In this document: in pieces, positions 1 through 9,657 of the stretch
Layout: every line of letters starts with the position of its first letter
Numbering within the stretch: the stretch's first letter is position 1
DNA from: Alphaproteobacteria bacterium
Lineage (GTDB): Bacteria > Pseudomonadota > Alphaproteobacteria > UBA828
Reading direction: 5' to 3'
Assembly (NCBI GenBank): GCA_965220745.1
Contig: CBDCQT010000010.1
Coordinates: forward strand, 160,001-224,000
Length of the DNA stretch: 64,000 nt
Position numbers and translations under genes: made by a program
The notes under the pieces: generated by a model
The model's database searches: none
The model's input: the letters and a program-made list of their open reading frames with translations, nothing else
What the model was told of the DNA's origin: nothing

Positions 1-1153
1 CGAGGAACTCGAAGGCGCTCTCGCCGAGGCCGAGGAAGAGGCCCCGTCGAGCACGGAGCGAACACCGCGCGCGAAGCGCCCCGCCGCGGAACGCAACATC
101 GGCGATCTTCCGGCCCACCTGCCGCGCTCCTATAGGCTGGTCGAGCCCGAGAGCACGCAGTGCCCGTGCGGTTGCGGCGAGATGACCAAGATCGGCGAGG
201 ACCGCACCGAGCGGCTGGACATCATTCCGGCGCAGCTTCTGGTCATCGTCACCATCCGGCCGAAGTACGCCTGCCGCGCGTGCGAGGAGGGCGTCACCCA
301 GGCGCCGGCGCCGGGGCACCTTGTCGAGGGCGGTCTGCCCACCGAGGGCATGCTCGCCCACGTGCTGGTGTCGAAGTTCGCCGACCACCTTCCTCTATAC
401 CGTCAGTCGCAGATCTACGCCCGCTCGGGGATCGAGCTGCACCGCTCGACGCTGGCCGACTGGGTCGGCAAGGCGTCGTTCCACTTGCGGCCCGTGTTCG
501 ACTGCCTGAAGGGAGAGTTGAAGACGTCGAGCAACCTCGGCCTGGACGAGACCACGGTTCGGGTTCTCGACCCGGGCCGGGGCAAGACCAAGACCGGCTA
601 CATGTGGACGATGACGCGCGACGGGCGGGGCTGGTCCGGGGCCGATCCGCCGGGCGTGGTCTATGAGTATGCGCCCGGCCGCAGCGGCAAGCATGGCGAG
701 GACCTTCTCGAGGGCTTCAAGGGGACGGTACAGGTCGACGGCTATTCCGGTCACAACCGGCTGCGCCGGCCGGACCGGCCGGGTGGGGCGCTGACGCTGG
801 CGGCATGCTGGACCCACGCGAGGCGCGGCTTGAAGGAGGTGTTCGACAGCAACGCCTCGCCGATCGCGGCGGAGGGTCTGAAGCGGATCGCGCAGCTCTA
901 CAAGATCGAGGACAAGATCCGGGGCAAGCCGCCGGCGACGCGCCAGTTCGTCCGGTGGACCGAGTCGGCGCCGCTGGTGAACGCCTTCGGCGTGTGGCTC
1001 GACGAGCAGCGCTCGCGCGTCTCACCGCGCTCGCGCTTGGGCGAGAAGCTCACCTACATCGCCAACCAGTGGGATGGGCTGCTGGTGTTCCTGTACGACG
1101 GGCGCGTCGAGATGGACACCAACGCCATCGAGAACCCCATCCGCCCGATCAAG
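1..1153 (+). pseudogene. tnpC: IS66 transposase TnpC, 5' part (runs off window start; interrupted by LSR element)
   Basis: CPCGC...YACRAC zinc finger, KFADHLPLYRQ, LDETT, VDGYSG, CWTHARR, DTNAIEN motifs; IS66 similarity stops at ...IRPIK (AAG 1151-1153). Confidence 0.93.
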
Positions 1154-1180
1154 ACGATGGAGTCATTCTGCACCCCTTGT

Positions 1181-3265
1181 TCAAGTGTCTGAAAACATTG
1201 ACATCTGTTCCCGGCAAGAGGATCGATGCGGATGTCGTCTCCTCCTGTTGGCCAAGGCTTGGGCGACGTTCTCGGTATGAAGGTCTGCAACCTTGATCTG
1301 CCAGGGCGCTCCGGGAACGACCTGCCGGGCGGGCAACTCTCCCATCTTGATGAGACGTCGGATGACGTGACTGGTGACGCCGAGCTCCTTCGCGGCTTCG
1401 AACATGGTGCACCAAATGCCGTCCCTGTAGGCGGGGAAATGAGCGTGAATGCCGTTCACGCGGCGGATCGAGCTGACCCGTTTGGCCGTCCAGGTCTTGT
1501 CCTGGCCGGTGCGCATGCCCATCCGGTTGAGCGACGCGGCGATATGATCGTCGGACCATCGTCCCGCCATGTTCCGCATGACCGCCAGGGCCTCATCGGA
1601 TGTCCTGCTTCCGTGCTCGCCACTCTTCGGCTTGCGAACCCTTAGCTGTGAGTGTTGGCCGCCGCGCCAATGAATCGTCAGGACGACTTCGCGGGCCTCG
1701 TCGTCGACATTGGCGACGATGTCGATGATCAATGTGCGCACGAGTCTCTGGCGTGCGCGCATGCTCACACCGGGTGCATTCCAGGCGGCTTTCAGGTCGT
1801 GGGCGAGGCCGGCCAAGTCCGGGCTAACGGCTTGAGGGTCTGGCGAGTGCATCGCTTCCAGTCGCTCCTGGCACGCCTGCACGCGCTGCAGCGCGGTCTC
1901 CCAACTCTTCTCCAGTTCGGCGGCGATCAGCCGGTTGTCGGGGTCGCAGGCGGCATAACGCCGCTCGGCGAGCGATGCTTCGTAGCGAGCTTGTTGCAGA
2001 TCGAGTTCGGCCACGTGCTGTCGTTCCCGCAGACTTTCCTCACGTGTGCGCTCGGCCTCCAGCGACGCCTCCAGCGCCATGGGCTCCACGACACGGAGGA
2101 TCTCCGCGGCAATAGCCTCATCCACCCGCGCGCCGCCAAATCCCAAACAACGCTTGAGGCCGAGATGAAGGTTCGGTCGGTCGCAACGGTAACGTGGGCG
2201 GCCGGGTCGCCCCCCGACATAGGCGACCGCCAAGCCACGGCCGCATCGACCGCACGTGAGGAGACCGCTGAGCAATGCTCGCCCGCCGCGTCCCGACTTC
2301 CTGCCCCCTGACTTGCTGTAGCTGTTTGCGGCGAGCTGTGTCTGGTTGCGCTCGAACTCCGCCCAGTCGATGTAGCCCTCGTGATGGTTCTTCAACAGAA
2401 CCTCCCACTCCTCCATCGGCTTGGCATGACCGTATGTCTTCCGCACGTACCCATTGATGATCTCGGTCCGACTCTCGTTCTTTCCATACGCGTAGACGCC
2501 GGCGTAAAAGGGATTCTTCAGCACCGAGATCACGTTGCCGTAGCGGATCGGCGTCCAATCGAACGAAACCATTGTGCTGCCATCCGACGGGCGGGGGAAG
2601 CAGAGTTGTTCCGCGGTCAGCGCCAGGAGCACCTGTCGTGCGCTGGCCAGATCGCGAAACCGCGCGAAGATCAGGCGGACCGTCTCCTGGACGCGCTTGT
2701 CGGGGTCAAGCCCCAATCCAGTGTCGCGATCCCAGACGTACCCGACGGGTACACCGATCCGGAGTTCGCCGCGCGCTGCTTTGGACGACCGGGCATCGTG
2801 CATCCGGGCGCGTAGCACACCGAGTTCGAACTCGCTGATTGTTCCCTTCATGCCGAGCAGCAAACGATCGTTGGGACGGCGCGGATCGTAGACGCCGTCA
2901 TGGTCGATGACGCGCGCGCCGACAAGACCACACAGCTCGAGAATATGGTGCCAATCTCGACCATTCCGAGCGACCCGAGACGCCTCGAAACAAAGCACTG
3001 CACCGACGTCGCCGGCACACAGCCACGCGACCAGGCGCTCGAACCCGGGTCGCGCCACCGCGCCACCGGCCGACAAGCCGAGATCCTCATCGATGATCTC
3101 GACGGCGCCGAACCCGTGGTCACGCGCGATGTCCACGAGATCGTACTGAAGGCGCTGGCTCTCAAGGTTGCCGCGGACCTGGGCAGGCGTGGATTGGCGG
3201 ACATAGACCACCGCCTTGCGGGACAGTACCGACCCCGGCAGGGAATCAGACGCGCGCATCGTCAT
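1181..3265 (-). CDS. Large serine recombinase (resolvase, recombinase, Zn-ribbon, coiled coil, C-terminal HTH)
   Basis: AVVYVRQST catalytic Ser motif, ARPGF, EASRVARN, LKNPFYAG, LLSGLLTCGRCG; GGAGG RBS. Confidence 0.95.
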   Translation of the reverse strand: MTMRASDSLPGSVLSRKAVVYVRQSTPAQVRGNLESQRLQYDLVDIARDHGFGAVEIIDEDLGLSAGGAVARPGFERLVAWLCAGDVGAVLCFEASRVARNGRDWHHILELCGLVGARVIDHDGVYDPRRPNDRLLLGMKGTISEFELGVLRARMHDARSSKAARGELRIGVPVGYVWDRDTGLGLDPDKRVQETVRLIFARFRDLASARQVLLALTAEQLCFPRPSDGSTMVSFDWTPIRYGNVISVLKNPFYAGVYAYGKNESRTEIINGYVRKTYGHAKPMEEWEVLLKNHHEGYIDWAEFERNQTQLAANSYSKSGGRKSGRGGRALLSGLLTCGRCGRGLAVAYVGGRPGRPRYRCDRPNLHLGLKRCLGFGGARVDEAIAAEILRVVEPMALEASLEAERTREESLRERQHVAELDLQQARYEASLAERRYAACDPDNRLIAAELEKSWETALQRVQACQERLEAMHSPDPQAVSPDLAGLAHDLKAAWNAPGVSMRARQRLVRTLIIDIVANVDDEAREVVLTIHWRGGQHSQLRVRKPKSGEHGSRTSDEALAVMRNMAGRWSDDHIAASLNRMGMRTGQDKTWTAKRVSSIRRVNGIHAHFPAYRDGIWCTMFEAAKELGVTSHVIRRLIKMGELPARQVVPGAPWQIKVADLHTENVAQALANRRRRHPHRSSCREQMSMFSDT

Positions 3266-3431
3266 CCTCCCGTTCCAGGATGCCCGTGGCTTCCAGCAGC
3301 ACTCCGGCCAGCGCGCCGAGCACTTCGCCCCGTTCGCTCGGGCTCAGCCCCCGCAGCTTCGGGGCGTCCAGCGCCATGCTCAACTGGCGAGGTTCGACAG
3401 GTGGAAGCTGTAGCGTCGACACAGACTTCAT
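3246..3431 (-). CDS. 61-aa hypothetical protein upstream of the LSR (MKSVSTLQLPP...)
   Basis: GAGGAG RBS before ATG 3431; overlaps LSR start. Confidence 0.55.
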   Translation of the reverse strand: MKSVSTLQLPPVEPRQLSMALDAPKLRGLSPSERGEVLGALAGVLLEATGILEREDDDARV

Positions 3432-3748
3432 CGCGAATCTCCTCGATGACGGGATGGTCATCACAGGAGCTTGCTCTGAAGCCTTGCGTAACGAGAAGCT
3501 CATGGAGTTCGCCAAGAGCGGCAAGAGACGCCCGAGGCTCACCGAGCTCCATTCCGATGCAGGCCGCCGGATCGAGCATCCAGACGGCAACCTTTATGAC
3601 TACACCCGGCTGTAGCTCGAGCAGGGCGAGTGAGCCATCGGCTCGATGCTCGACGCGCTCAAGGCGGAGACGGCGGCCGAAATGGGCGTGCCACGGGTAA
3701 TGGACGACGCAATCCTGCCCGACATGGGCAGAATGAACGGATGATGAA
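3262..3748 (-). CDS. Accessory ORF open to the element end with no ATG in its 5' part (HSAHVGQDCVVHYPWHAHFGRR...WMLDPAAC)
   Basis: Frame open from attR to TGA 3262-3264, which overlaps the LSR ATG (ATGA); in the integrated state an in-frame TGA lies just outside the element. Confidence 0.65.
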
Positions 3749-3977
3749 GCTCACGAAGAAAAACGCGCTGTTCGCCGGCAGCGATGACGGCGCCACGACC
3801 TGGGCGCGATGCGCCAGCCTGATCGGCACCTGCAAGCTCAACGGCGTCAATCCGCAGGTCTACCTGACCGACACCCTGCGCCGGATCGTCGACATGCACC
3901 CCGTGTCACGCATCGATGACCTGATGCCCTGGAACTTCACCCCGACAATCCCGAGCGTCACACGTCAACAAGGGTGA
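3747..3977 (+). pseudogene. tnpC: IS66 TnpC 3' part
   Basis: KLTKKNALFAGSDDG...SLIGTCKLNGVNPQVYL...DDLMPWNF, the classic IS66 C-terminus. Confidence 0.93.
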
Positions 3978-3992
3978 CCGCGCGGCGCTTAC
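3975..3992. repeat. IS66 right terminal inverted repeat
   Basis: Ends in CGCTTAC (reverse complement GTAAGCG), IS66 terminus consensus, just after the tnpC stop. Confidence 0.75.
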
Positions 3993-4745
3993 ACTCATCC
4001 ACGTAGCGCTGAAAGTGATTCGGGCTGATCTTGTGGAACTTGCCGGCATGGGCGCGCTTCAGCATGGACCAGAAGCTCTCCGTGTCGTTGGTGTGGGCCA
4101 TCCCGCGCATGTGCTCGCCAGCGCTGTGGTTGACGTTCTCATGGTCGAACCATGCCGCCAGTGCGTCATAAGCCTTCGATTCGTCGGTGTAGACCTTCGC
4201 CCCTAGCAGTCTGTCGGACTTCCGACTTCAGAAAGTCGTAACTATTTGATTTTTCGACATTTGTGATTTCACTACTGGAGCTATTCGATTCACGAATATC
4301 TATACTTTTCAGCACGTTACGAAAATGGCGCTCCCAAAGTCCGACAGACTGCTAGCGTGGTCTTTTCCGCGACGAAGCACGCGAGGTGGGTGGTATCGGT
4401 GCGCCTGACATACCGCGCGGCGACCTTCCCTGTCTCGCGATCCTTCGTGCCGACCACCGCGGCCTTGCCAACCGCGCCCCGGCCCGTGTCCGCCAATTCC
4501 TTCCGCTTCGCCTTGTGTCGAACTGGTGCTGGCCCCCGGGCGGGTGCGGGCCGGGCACGCGGAGCGGATGCGCTCGCCGGTCGGCGAGATGCCGTACCTC
4601 GGAATCTCGACACTGGCTGACCGCTTGTCAGACCTCCGACATTGCCGCTCGACCCAACGACCTACCGGCAGAGGGCAAGCTGCGGCAACCTGGCCATCAT
4701 GTTCCTGTAGCGTTCCAATGCGCCGCAAAACTTTTGCATTCCACT
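3993..4745 (-). pseudogene. IS1595-family transposase remnant, cut by IS66 and interrupted by a MITE
   Basis: Fragments GRGAVGKAAVVGTKDRETGKV and VYTDESKAY...HENVNHS...HTNDTESFWSMLKRA...HFQRYVDE. Confidence 0.8.
4207..4351. mobile_element. 145-bp MITE, perfect 15-bp TIRs, CTAG duplication
   Basis: CAGTCTGTCGGACTT (4207-4221) / AAGTCCGACAGACTG (4337-4351); CTAG at 4203-4206 and 4352-4355. Confidence 0.88.
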
Positions 4746-6851: not shown

Positions 6852-7913
6852 TCATCCCCCACTATTCCTCAGAAGCGGGCTCGAATGACTGTGCTTAAAG
6901 GTCAAGATTGAGTCTCCAACATTGACGGTACCACTGAGTTCTCGCGCGATGGCGGCTCCGATGCGCTCTGCCGCCGTTTCGGTCTCGCGGTCTCCGACAT
7001 GGGCGTAGCGCATCGTCATGCTCGGTCGCCTGTGGCCAAGCAGGCGCGAAACCACCGGCAGCGGAACGCCTTGCAGTACGGCGTGGCTAGCTACCGTGTG
7101 TCGGAGATCGTGAAGGCGAACATCCTCGATCCCGGCTTCCCTGCGTACCGACCGCCAGAGCTTGAGATCTGGCGAGAGCGGCTTGCCGGTCTTTCAAGGC
7201 GAAGGAAAGACGTATGTGCTCCCGAATCGCGGCTGCCGATCGAGGATGGCGCGTGCCGGTGCATTCAGGAAGACTCGCCGCGGTCCCGACTTGGCGTCGC
7301 TCAGGTTGATCGTGTTCCCGTCCACGTCCTGCCAGCGCAGGGTCAGGATTTCGCTCTTCCGGCATCCGGTCAGCAGCAGAAGGCGGATGATGTCTGCCTG
7401 CTGCGCGCGTGACGGCTGCACGGCGGCGATGTGGTCCAGCGCGCGATGAAGTCGCTGGACCTCCTCGTGCGAGAGGAAGCGGGTGACTCCGGCATGGGTG
7501 ATGCGGTCTAACGACAGCGAGCCGAAAGCGGGCAGCAAGCGAGCCTTCAAGGCCCAGCGCTCGGACTTTTGCGTCGACGGCTTGCACCTGTCGAGACAGA
7601 CACGCCCCGGCCCGGCGACGAATTCCTCGAATGTCGGCATGGCGTCGCCGTCGTTGCGGGTCGGCCGCTCACCGGTCTCGAATGCACGACACCGGCTGCG
7701 TGCTTCCTCGACGCTCATCAAGGCGGCGGGTCCGAGCGTGATCCGTCTTGCGTCGCCATCGCCACTGCGGCGATACACGAAGCTTCGGTGCCCCGAAGGA
7801 CGCACGCGCACGCCGAGACCGTCATGTCGGGCGTCGAAGACCGTATACTCGCGCGCCGCCGGCTTCAGCCTCGTGACGTTGGCATCCGTCAGTCGTTGTC
7901 TCTTTACGGCCAT
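6852..7913 (-). pseudogene. Tyrosine integrase with arm-binding N-domain, second of tandem pair; nonsense codon and internal deletion
   Basis: LLLTGCRKSEIL, RLHDLRHT, LLGH..MTMRYAH all in one frame with a single TGA at 7194-7196; core-binding region shorter than in the paralog. Confidence 0.85.
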
Positions 7914-7916
7914 TTC

Positions 7917-9041
7917 CTAGCCCCCGAGGACAGCGCCGATGGTGTCGACCGCCTCACGCACCATGGCGTCGGACAAATGCGCGTATTTCAGGGTCGTCTC
8001 CGGGTCGCGATGCCCGAGAAGCCTGCCGATGGTCAGCACCGTCTCGCCCTGCGCCATGGCGACGCTGGCGTACGTGTGCCTGAGGTCATGAATTCGGACG
8101 TCGTGCAGGTCAGCTTCCGCTCTTGCGCGATACCAGAGCTGGTCGACCGCCACCGCGGTCATGCAGCGGTTCGTCCTGGTCGAAGGGAATATCCAGACCG
8201 ACTTGCGTGGCAATCCGTCGAGGATCGCGCGCGCGGCAGACGAGAGCCAGACCGTGCGCGGCCCAACCTTGCTATCGGGCAGGAAGAGGTTACCCTCGCG
8301 ATAGAAGCGCCATTTCAGGGTGACAATCTCGCCCTTGCGGCATCCGGTGAGGAGAAGCAGCCGTATGATTGCTGTAGCCTGCGGGTGGTCGACTTCATGG
8401 CGGGACAGCACTTCGCCAAGCCGGCGAATCTCGGCGGTTGACAGGAAGCGCTGCCGTCCCCGGCGGCGGTATCGCTTGATGCCGGCGCAAGGGTTTGTCC
8501 CCTCGGGCCTGTAGCCGTAGACCTCGGCCTGGCGCATGATGACCGAGAGGATGGGGGCTGACCGGTCTGCCGAGACCGGGGTATTGTGGAGCGCCGCGAA
8601 CCAGTGCTGGACGTCATGGGCAGTGATGTCGGCGATGGGGCGCCCTTCGAACCAGGGCAAGATATGGTTGCTGAAGTAATTCCGATTGACCTTGAGTGTC
8701 GAGGGCTTCCAGTTTCGGGCGTATCGCCGGAAGACTTCGCTGGCGACCGTCTCGAAGGCGATGTCCGGCGGTGCTGCGGCCGCGTCACCGTTTCCGTTCC
8801 TGATTGCGGCCAACATGGCCCTGGCGCGCTCGCGGGCCTCGTCCACACTAACGTCGTCGGCTTTGCCGATGAGTCTCCAGACTCGCCTGCCATCGTACTG
8901 AGTATGGATGAAGTAGCGCTTGGCGCCCGAGGGCAGGACCCTAACGCCGAAGCTCTTGAGTTCGGGGTCACGGACGTCGTGGGCGGACTTGCGGGGCTTG
9001 AGCGCATCGACGCGGCGCTGACTGAGGCGAGCAGTTGCCAT
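7917..9041 (-). CDS. Tyrosine integrase with arm-binding N-domain
   Basis: FGVRVLPSGAK N-domain; TGCRKGE, RIHDLRHT, LLGH, TTLKYAH catalytic motifs. Confidence 0.93.
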   Translation of the reverse strand: MATARLSQRRVDALKPRKSAHDVRDPELKSFGVRVLPSGAKRYFIHTQYDGRRVWRLIGKADDVSVDEARERARAMLAAIRNGNGDAAAAPPDIAFETVASEVFRRYARNWKPSTLKVNRNYFSNHILPWFEGRPIADITAHDVQHWFAALHNTPVSADRSAPILSVIMRQAEVYGYRPEGTNPCAGIKRYRRRGRQRFLSTAEIRRLGEVLSRHEVDHPQATAIIRLLLLTGCRKGEIVTLKWRFYREGNLFLPDSKVGPRTVWLSSAARAILDGLPRKSVWIFPSTRTNRCMTAVAVDQLWYRARAEADLHDVRIHDLRHTYASVAMAQGETVLTIGRLLGHRDPETTLKYAHLSDAMVREAVDTIGAVLGG

Positions 9042-9657
9042 GGAATTTCCTCCCCAGTTCAGTTGCAGCCGGGGACAGAATTCGGGCAGAATTCGTGTCA
9101 CTTGGCCGAATTAGGAGGAAAAAAGCAACGCTATGTCAGTATGTTAGCACTGAAAGTGCGCGAGCGCGAGTACCACATCTAGGATCAGCGAATATGCGCG
9201 CTATTCGGCAATCATCAACAGCTGGTGCGTGGTGCGCGGGTTTGCGCGATCGACCCGGCAGATACCTGGTGGGGACTGCGGCTCATGGCCGACGGGGCCG
9301 CTCCGTCCGGCCATCGGATCGTCATCTTCGCGGGGCAGCACGCGGACCTGCCGATCCAGGCCGCCGATGGTCCCGCCATCGCCGGGACCATCGGCACATC
9401 GCCCGCCATACCCACCATCATCGACACACGGCAAATGACCGTGTCCGAGCGCACGCGTTTCTTCACCGGGTTCGCCGAAACCCCGGTGCGGACCAATCAA
9501 GGGGAGCTGACGGTGATTCGCCGGAGTATTGCCGGTGGACAGGCTGTCCTGAGCTTCCCGGCGCTCATTATCGATCGGCCTGCGGATTGGCTGCCGATCG
9601 GCACGGCAAGCGTCAAATCCGGCGGGACTCAGGGGGGCGAAGTTGGACGCCAACACC

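Follow-up and report, generated by a model that had tools for sequence, protein, structure and literature searches.

The DNA analysed here, which we call the window, is a stretch of 64,000 nucleotides (nt) from an alphaproteobacterium of the UBA828 lineage (contig CBDCQT010000010.1, positions 160,001 to 224,000). Positions 1151-3748 of the window are occupied by a 2.6-kb mobile element, which lies antisense within an IS66-family transposase gene. On the minus strand, the element carries in this order a frame without a start, termed orfA, the small gene orfB and the gene of a large serine recombinase (LSR) (Table 1). The recombinase is the sole enzyme of this IS-like element. The present work concerns orfA. 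Its Shine–Dalgarno (SD) sequence, ATG and first codons lie at one end of the integrated element and its coding body lies at the other, and we consider it likely that the element is an IS66-homing LSR element in which orfA is split by integration and made whole in the excised circle, with the OrfA protein serving as a partner of the recombinase.

The stop codon of the LSR gene (1183-1181) is followed by the hexamer AAGGGG, by six further bases and by an ATG (1166-1164), which in the integrated state starts an open reading frame (ORF) of only 5 codons, terminated by a TGA inside the IS66 flank. At the opposite end, the orfA frame is open for 157 codons from the CAT at 3735-3733. An in-frame TGA (3753-3751) closes it immediately outside the element, and the first possible start in the ORF listing is the Met of the sequence MLDP, codon 52 counted from the CAT, with no ATG, GTG or TTG before it. 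The dinucleotide at 1151-1152 is the same as that at 3747-3748, and each copy lies 11 nt from a mirrored 9-nt motif that holds the ATG in the left arm and the CAT in the right arm. When the two ends are joined in silico at this common AA/TT, an in-frame ORF of 9 + 157 = 166 codons results, with the crossover between its codons 5 and 6; its stop (TGA 3264-3262) overlaps the start of the LSR gene (ATG 3265-3263) in the sequence ATGA. A preliminary description of this DNA had already reported the AAGGGG and ATG, the headless frame, the TGA outside, a joint product of about 166 amino acids and the ATGA overlap, and all of these statements were correct on recheck. Its central proposal, a gene complete only across the attachment (att) site of the circle, attP, is borne out by the in-silico joint, where the crossover falls inside orfA. 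The empty site rebuilt from the window is one uninterrupted IS66 frame. The element is single-copy in its own genome, and no uninterrupted paralogue of the window's IS66 gene was found there.

Table 1. Features of the integrated element and of the interrupted gene (positions in the window)
Feature	Position	Strand	Remarks
IS66-family transposase gene, 5' part, interrupted target	2..1150	+	Pfam DDE_Tnp_IS66, E 6.4e-89, profile 2-266 of 284, plus zf-IS66
Crossover dinucleotide, LSR-distal end, boundary of element and target	1151..1152	AA on +, TT on -	Repeated at 3747-3748; 11 nt to ATG
Left att arm with the head of orfA	1153..1180	-	SD AAGGGG 1178-1173, ATG 1166-1164, first 4-5 codons; includes inverted-repeat motif 1163-1171
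LSR, 694 amino acids (aa)	1181..3265	-	Pfam Resolvase, Recombinase, Zn_ribbon_recom, HTH_17
orfB, 61 aa	3246..3431	-	ATG 3431-3429, GAGGAG SD 3444-3439; frame +1 with respect to orfA; runs 16 nt into the LSR gene
Unconserved tail of the orfA reading frame	3262..3450	-	Overlaps orfB; stop TGA 3264-3262 within the ATGA of the LSR start; pN/pS >1
Body of orfA, conserved and start-less; DUF5372-like beta-barrel with helix	3451..3735	-	First codon CAT 3735-3733 in the right att arm
Right att arm, mirror of the left	3725..3746	-	Motif 3728-3736 is the reverse complement of 1163-1171
Crossover dinucleotide, orfA end	3747..3748	both	11 nt to CAT
IS66-family transposase gene, 3' part	3749..3977	+	Pfam DDE_Tnp_IS66_C, E 6.1e-20

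A word-index search with the headless ORF found three relatives. A search with a profile of ten sequences retrieved 2792 representative proteins at E <= 1e-3, 974 of them at E <= 1e-10. Ten loci in species-representative genomes (Alphaproteobacteria, Burkholderiaceae, Rhodoferax, Steroidobacteraceae, Egibacteraceae and Acidobacteriota) cover the Alpha-, Beta- and Gammaproteobacteria, the Actinomycetota and the Acidobacteriota, and four more were found among 400 genomes of the same class as the window. In metagenomes 519 stretches were confirmed, the best 80 of which were analysed, and 211 plasmid records, mostly rhizobial, matched by tblastn (Rhizobium 67, Sinorhizobium 55, Bradyrhizobium 15, and others). 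The relatives carry LSRs of 47-75% identity downstream of orfA, and the intact copies, from loci with both ends, are 2577-2623 nt long. In 92 loci, including the window, the conserved OrfA protein starts at the same CAT, before which the sequence is unrelated or is IS66 antisense. The first 12 nt of orfA (CAT TCT GCC CAT) are near-invariant in these loci even at synonymous sites, as expected of a recombinase binding arm. Both named plasmid copies, on pSmeSM11c of S. meliloti SM11 and on pPNAP04 of Polaromonas, conform to this arrangement (2/2). In the RefSeq record of the latter (Polaromonas naphthalenivorans CJ2; locus L115, 27458-27769), an antisense 'hypothetical protein' is called and orfA is unannotated. 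Beneath most of the plasmid matches listed there is no annotated feature.

In all 47 loci for which both ends are available, an ATG follows the LSR stop or overlaps it. The spacing between this ATG and the crossover is the same throughout, and in the in-silico circles the ATG is in frame with orfA (47/47). The junction frame is thus constant among homologues rather than random, the point on which the preliminary description had staked its reading. As that description had itself remarked, an in-frame joint in the window alone has a 1-in-3 chance of arising. Nor is the terminal inverted repeat, with its 9 nt, long enough to be conspicuous. The joint being unremarkable by itself, the case beyond chance comes from the family. 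The site is symmetric (3 + 11 + 2 + 11 nt) and the ATG mirrors the CAT, so that the two always stand 27 nt apart and the frame is constant.

One feature that discriminates is the SD sequence. Over the 20 nt before the left-arm ATG, the mean pairing energy was -9.0 kcal/mol, and 36 of the 38 distinct arms reached our threshold of -6 kcal/mol or lower for pairing with the anti-SD, for which a general string and not one from these genomes was used. The mirror-image right arm gave a mean of -2.2 kcal/mol and none of 38 at or below -6, and the threshold was reached by 12% of background ATGs from the same loci (n = 3000); the left arm of the window has a pairing energy of -7.7. Unlike the ATG and the frame, this asymmetry between the arms cannot follow from the symmetry of the att site. 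The preliminary description had suggested testing whether ATG, ribosome-binding site and frame are conserved over attP in relatives. All three are, and of the three only the ribosome-binding site counts independently of att symmetry. In addition, the LSR stop overlaps the junction ATG in 10 loci, 7 times as ATGA and 3 times as TAATG. In the integrated state, the ORF that begins at the left-end ATG varies from 5 to 124 codons and yields no constant product, which leaves this SD and ATG without evident use as long as the element is integrated.

Three of the 150 best representative proteins (P0012, P0025 and P0050), encoded on contigs of 660-1836 nt, begin with the exact 9-residue leader of the junction, which indicates that the joined form has been assembled from environmental DNA. 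Judged from these protein N-termini, the joined form exists in nature. In Logan contigs of the four runs that hold the window, all from one sample, no joint of 1151 to 3748 was found and the integrated form alone is present, from about 1040 to 4100; contigs drop rare variants, and the missing joint therefore says nothing about excision. Contigs of three runs (X1-X3) join position 2870 to position 3818 with 7 extra letters and 21 nt on one side; these points are off the element ends, and the contigs probably represent a related sequence.

The preliminary description had pointed to the codons upstream of MLDP as a place to look for purifying selection, and such selection is present. For orfA codons 9-51, the median ratio of the proportions of nonsynonymous and synonymous differences (pN/pS) was 0.65, whereas the two alternative frames gave 1.18 and 1.25, with synonymous sites saturated; the closest pair of orfA sequences shows a nonsynonymous divergence (dN) of 0.08 and a synonymous divergence (dS) of 0.49. 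In sliding windows over codons 0-90 of 29 non-redundant loci, pN/pS was 0.29-0.49. The start-less N-terminus of orfA is therefore protein-coding and under purifying selection. In 38 of the 79 integrated copies whose upstream stop is visible, the window included, there is no ATG, GTG or TTG from that stop to codon 12. Gene callers placed the N-termini of the 150 best relatives anywhere between 11 residues within the domain and 83 residues ahead of it. Across the copies compared, the integrated state offers no conserved start for orfA. That annotation misses or miscalls orfA, sometimes in favour of an antisense ORF, would be explained by the split of the gene.

The target of the element can be read from its flanks. 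An IS66 motif is found on the opposite strand of the right flank in 58 of 85 loci by a strict pattern, and 12 more IS66 flanks were recognised by eye, giving 70/85; the remaining 15 loci have other targets, one of which resembles the IS66 accessory gene. In L007 (G357 contig C171), a distant member, the opposite strand of the flank reads like a motif of the IS66 accessory protein, presumably of the TnpB/Orf2 type, and not of the transposase. All 70 IS66-type flanks show the element in the antisense orientation to the target gene. The crossover dinucleotide is equal at both ends in 42 of the 47 loci with both ends, and the arms are mirrored. Rebuilt empty sites are one open IS66 frame across the joint in 33 of these 47 loci, and the crossover accordingly falls within the motif RP(I/V)-A-LGRKN, at its alanine codon. 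Judged by these flanks, the element inserts antisense at that codon of IS66-family transposase genes. The ends display short, imperfect inverted-repeat att arms around a 2-nt crossover, and the rebuilt sites point to precise conservative insertion, as in LSR elements generally. No naturally empty site was found in the S. meliloti SM11 megaplasmid, nor among plasmids searched with a 589-nt flank query.

The last 8-9 codons of the LSR gene (window 1184-1210; loci L010-L019) are conserved at the nucleotide level, even between Alphaproteobacteria and Acidobacteriota. These codons lie 30-50 nt from the crossover, outside the usual half-site and beyond the needs of a 50-bp att site. This stretch might bind a further protein or belong to a promoter.

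The identity of the recombinase is clear from its domains. The catalytic domain (PF00239, E 3.5e-22) spans residues 18-167; R23, Q24 and S25 do not vary among 18 aligned LSRs, and the R-x-S nucleophile motif is present. The Recombinase domain (PF07508, E 3.3e-18) and the zinc ribbon (PF13408, E 1.6e-07) correspond to the first and second DNA-binding domains, DBD1 and DBD2. At its C-terminus, residues 618-663 (within window 1181-1330) resemble an HTH_17 or excisionase-like domain. The matches are sub-threshold, with a Pfam E of 2.5e-5 and an E of 8.5e-5 for NCBIfam TIGR01764 'excise', and the domain, conserved throughout the same set of 18 LSRs, may serve as an additional module for DNA binding.

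The AlphaFold2 (AF2) model of OrfA has a mean predicted local distance difference test score (pLDDT) of 79, with residues 10-60 above 90, and consists of a five-stranded small barrel followed by helices. Foldseek gave no match in the PDB at E <= 0.001, and VIA-align matched OrfA to generic small beta-barrels only (KOW, Tudor, SH3-like and PsaE); the best of these matches (Z 6.3, root-mean-square deviation 1.8 over 46 residues) is below the informative range of the tool. At the sequence level, the orfA product had no match in Pfam (window protein, E <= 1), NCBIfam or PHROG, and the pointer to DUF5372 came from a protein atlas. Relatives of OrfA score at best 24.2, 20.1 and 18.6 bits against the Pfam family DUF5372 (PF17342), below its gathering threshold of 25, and hhalign aligned OrfA with a bona fide DUF5372 protein from the same genome over 44 columns (probability 67%, E 5.1e-5). 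By these sequence comparisons, OrfA is a distant DUF5372 relative and not a formal member of the family. That bona fide DUF5372 gene lies upstream of a helix-turn-helix (HTH) gene and another LSR gene, and three copies of 96-98% identity in another genome (G191), which share a 4.7-kb block, likewise lie upstream of an HTH gene and an LSR gene. With their genes beside LSR genes, DUF5372-type proteins look like LSR companions in general.

The bona fide DUF5372 gene of the window's own genome belongs to a second, unrelated LSR element there (L101, G000 contig C12, 216500-225500; and L102), which is arranged DUF5372, HTH, LSR and abuts the 3' end of a tyrosine integrase gene. The LSR gene of this element is interrupted by three consecutive tyrosine-recombinase genes, a recombinase trio. 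Its DUF5372 frame extends without a stop beyond the GTG, with CAT TCA as its first codons, and an ATG after the LSR stop lies in a motif mirrored at 7 of 8 positions. By eye, no matching crossover was found at any symmetric spacing in this disrupted copy.

The preliminary description had proposed to predict a complex of the ORF product with the LSR, and in the model OrfA binds the recombinase with an ipSAE interface score of 0.63, against 0.13 for the best control. Of 80 solved complexes 58 attain the mark that we applied, as do 2 of 110 mismatched pairs; these counts hold approximately, since our own alignments were used. At least 70% of contacts agree between model runs, and the pLDDT of the partner is at least 72. 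The modelled interface joins helix 62-87 and the W-H motif of OrfA to LSR residues 337-343, 388-405 and 481-540, a surface made up of the zinc ribbon and both ends of the coiled coil. Recombination directionality factors (RDFs) are reported to bind the coiled coil and/or DBD2 of LSRs (PMC12286644). OrfA is thus predicted to bind the LSR at the zinc-ribbon and coiled-coil base, the site where RDFs bind.

The remaining gene, orfB, has no family match in Pfam, NCBIfam or PHROG. It was conserved in 7 of the first 14 loci by tblastn, and its motif is found in the +1 frame in all 18 loci with a strict motif match. Its ATG is preceded by a strong SD in 76 of 80 loci. From about codon 100 onwards the pN/pS of the orfA frame rises to 1.1-1.4, and the +1 frame, that of orfB, has the lowest value, about 0.7. 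Nevertheless, in 70 of 71 non-redundant loci no stop interrupts the orfA frame over the length of orfB until an xTGA that overlaps or adjoins the LSR start, whereas synonymous shuffles of orfB predict 27.1 open frames, with a maximum of 44 in 500,000 simulations; kinship inflates this count, and the region is near saturation, at 57-60% nucleotide identity. The stop of orfA overlaps the LSR start as ATGA or GTGA in 83 of 89 loci. Read from these sequences, the selected trait is the arrival of ribosomes on orfA at the LSR start and not the product of the tail. The open tail suggests termination-reinitiation coupling to the LSR gene, and its translation would also occlude initiation at orfB. In six representative clusters (P0012, P0036, P0047, P0052/P0154, P0121 and P0127), orfA and the orfB motif are fused in one frame, unlike every locus examined, where orfB is in the +1 frame. 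The fusions suggest that the two products act together.

These features can be assembled into a cycle. In the integrated state, the SD, the ATG and the first codons stand behind the LSR stop, the conserved orfA body lacks a start at the opposite end, and orfA would be silent or nearly so. Excision would rejoin the ends and make orfA the cistron after the LSR gene, to be translated efficiently in the circle; any internal promoter whose transcripts run round the circle could supply the junction transcript. OrfA would then dock on the LSR and tune the enzyme for the circle state, most plausibly by favouring integration or by blocking the reverse reaction. Ribosomes on the unconserved tail of orfA would cross orfB and terminate on the LSR start, so that more LSR would be made in the circle. 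Integration would split orfA again and reset the system. Since the 2.6-kb circle has no replication gene, the coherent direction is that OrfA favours or secures integration and is then switched off; a classical role in promoting excision is less probable, being harder to reconcile with this life cycle. The sequences themselves show the anatomy, the conserved SD and ATG, the selection on the headless part and the selected open frame. The binding of OrfA to the LSR is modelled, and we infer from these results that translation is specific to the circle, that it is coupled to the LSR gene and in which direction OrfA acts.

A more far-reaching version, which we put forward as tentative, is a translational switch by which the element reads its own topology. 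The integrated form would make only OrfB, a candidate excision factor, and a basal amount of LSR. In the circle, the junction SD and ATG would recruit ribosomes to orfA, OrfA would occupy the RDF surface, orfB would be silenced by ribosomes passing its start in another frame and LSR synthesis would be boosted, which would commit the element to integration before the system is reset. Recombination state would then be sensed through ribosome traffic and not through a promoter, and DUF5372 would represent a general class of LSR partners.

Several observations weigh against the proposed cycle. The conservation of the frame is one evolutionary event with a prior of 1 in 3, and the ATG and the frame are not independent evidence. 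The joint is also stop-free in frame +2, in all 45 distinct joints, and the stop-free joint was dropped as evidence for that reason. Some canonical start is present in 41 of the 79 integrated copies, so that what the integrated state lacks is a conserved start; about half of the copies carry a chance one, an ATG supplied by the target at codon -10 or a GTG at codons 8-10. GTG or TTG occurs at codons 5-10 in 22 of 91 loci, from which the whole DUF5372-like core would still be made, and an ATG at codon -10 occurs in 5 loci and in 16 of the 150 best representatives, where the 10-residue leader was traced to the antisense strand of IS66 variants. A linear scan of 1050-3850 found no sigma-70-like promoter, and hence none to which a transcript carrying the joint could be assigned. 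The pairing of orfB with its own SD is at or below -6 kcal/mol in 92% of the 76 loci, and that of the LSR gene is so before its first start in 69% of loci; where a second ATG lies six bases downstream, as in 39 loci, the share is 97%. With these SDs, coupling is not required and could only modulate LSR synthesis. The suggestion in the preliminary description of coupled LSR translation from the excised form thus keeps its footing in the open orfA frame, and loses the word 'only', as the LSR can also be made without the circle. The OrfA-OrfB fusions do not fit a simple antagonism of the two proteins, and the score of the LSR-OrfA complex is a model and not a measurement. Finally, the commonest crossover dinucleotide is the palindromic GC, in 35 of 47 loci (for example L026, L033 and L085). 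A palindromic core should not fix the orientation in which a serine integrase inserts its element, yet the orientation in IS66 is constant; a factor other than the core must set the orientation, or insertions of the other orientation must have been lost.

Some of these points would find an explanation if the junction ORF were a by-product of the att architecture. The ATG, part of the G-run and the frame would then come from the inverted half-sites, OrfA would be made in the integrated state from an internal GTG or near-cognate codon at positions 5-12 or from starts in the flank, and the junction ORF would have no role. The mirroring of ATG and CAT in the arms would follow, the three bases beside the repeat are G-rich in both arms, and the bona fide DUF5372 protein starts at the equivalent of codon 11-12; the GTG and TTG codons, the ATG supplied by the target and the undiscriminating stop-free joint also agree with it. 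This explanation leaves unaccounted for the purine-rich extension of the SD, which is confined to the left arm, and the overlap of the LSR stop with the junction ATG, which resembles that of coupled cistrons. Nor does it suit the scattered positions of the integrated starts or the copies that have no canonical start before codon 12. We therefore regard it as rather unlikely.

Another possibility would be that OrfA is a classical RDF that drives excision and is made at a low level from the integrated copy, the junction start boosting its synthesis after excision and so preventing immediate re-integration into the vacated site. The modelled interface lies where RDFs are reported to bind (PMC12286644), and the small accessory proteins GirC and GirX are reportedly needed with the LSR of the gin element (PMC5595907). 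A 2.6-kb circle without a replication gene, however, would be lost if integration stayed blocked. Moreover, half of the integrated copies cannot start orfA canonically, and as an RDF candidate orfB is no less good, having its own SD whether the element is integrated or excised. We consider this role improbable. That orfA is a decaying remnant without present function, truncated by insertion or by drift of the att site, might be suggested by the start-less copy in the window and by the lack of a Pfam match above threshold, and is scarcely credible given the purifying selection on orfA, which already contradicts it, the same boundary in 92 loci from five phyla or classes, the confident fold of the protein and the open frame reaching the LSR start.

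Other putative mobile sequences lie nearby in the window. Positions 4203-4355 hold an AT-rich stretch of about 150 bp between perfect 19-nt terminal inverted repeats, in GC-rich surroundings. It resembles a miniature inverted-repeat element, and the GC-rich surroundings encode the C-terminus of a transposase-like ORF (3958-4110, minus strand). On the minus strand at 6852-9101 there are two tandem tyrosine-integrase-like genes, one of which (7917-9101) looks whole and the other (7194-7913 plus 6852-7055) looks split.

If confirmed, the proposed cycle would have several consequences. It would provide the first function-bearing context for DUF5372-like proteins, as LSR partners at the directionality-factor site, and it may help to explain direction control in minimal LSR elements. 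It would define an unrecognised and widespread family of 2.6-kb LSR elements, with 211 plasmid records (mostly Rhizobium and Sinorhizobium) and hundreds of soil-metagenome contigs, and its homing to IS66 would make these mobile elements parasites of mobile elements. The dependence of a gene on topology at the level of translation initiation would be a compact device, usable in synthetic recombinase circuits and state machines. It would also account for the failure of annotation pipelines to recognise orfA and for their calling an antisense ORF instead.

In the open full-text literature, taken without supplements and subscription journals, we found no description of the element family, of DUF5372 or of an accessory gene with its start across attP, and IS66 is absent from the main text of a large LSR survey preprint. 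That an att site inside a gene can make expression depend on the state of recombination is an already known principle. What appear to be new are a bacterial serine-recombinase accessory gene from which only the translation initiation region is detached, the selected run-on of the orfA frame to the recombinase start, the partnership of DUF5372 and LSR, and the element family itself with its IS66 target.

In SSV-type tyrosine integrases, attP lies inside the integrase gene, which is split on integration (PMC7253208). The present element is similar in that its att site lies inside one of its own genes, which is whole only in the excised form. While the SSV-type systems belong to archaeal viruses and plasmids and cut the integrase itself into two large parts, here an accessory gene of a bacterial serine-recombinase element is divided, the detached piece comprises only the SD, the ATG and about five codons, and the recombinase gene is left whole. 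Mycobacteriophage BPs and its relatives have integration-dependent immunity, in which a regulatory gene contains attP and the protein made depends on the integration state (PMC4557955). The present arrangement would likewise be a built-in sensor of that state. In the BPs phage, which uses a tyrosine integrase, integration changes the 3' end of the repressor gene, a degradation tag is lost and the integrated form is active, whereas here 5' initiation is removed and the excised form is complete.

Junction promoters of insertion sequences are activated by joined ends. Circle-specific promoters are also described for TnpX of Tn4451/Tn4453, for Pcir of ICEclc and for P3'end of ICEKp1 (PMC13023037). 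As in these elements, joined ends would switch on the expression of recombination genes in the circle, and Tn4451 also uses a large serine recombinase. The known cases act at the level of transcription, through a promoter that is assembled at the joint or reads across it, whereas in the present element a translation initiation region would be joined to a coding body.

OrfA itself invites comparison with the RDFs of large serine integrases and with GirX of the gin element, being a small protein encoded beside an LSR and predicted to dock on DBD2 and the coiled-coil base (PMC12286644, PMC5595907). Unlike classical RDFs, which are needed when the element is integrated, OrfA has a gene that is complete only after excision, and no sequence relation to RDFs was found in Pfam, NCBIfam or PHROG. 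With DUF5372 proteins it shares an N-terminal motif (aromatic-x-W/F-H-P-L-x-G-R), a beta-rich start and the position of its gene upstream of an LSR gene. It differs from them in falling below the Pfam threshold, and the bona fide DUF5372 loci contain another kind of LSR and, in addition, an HTH gene.

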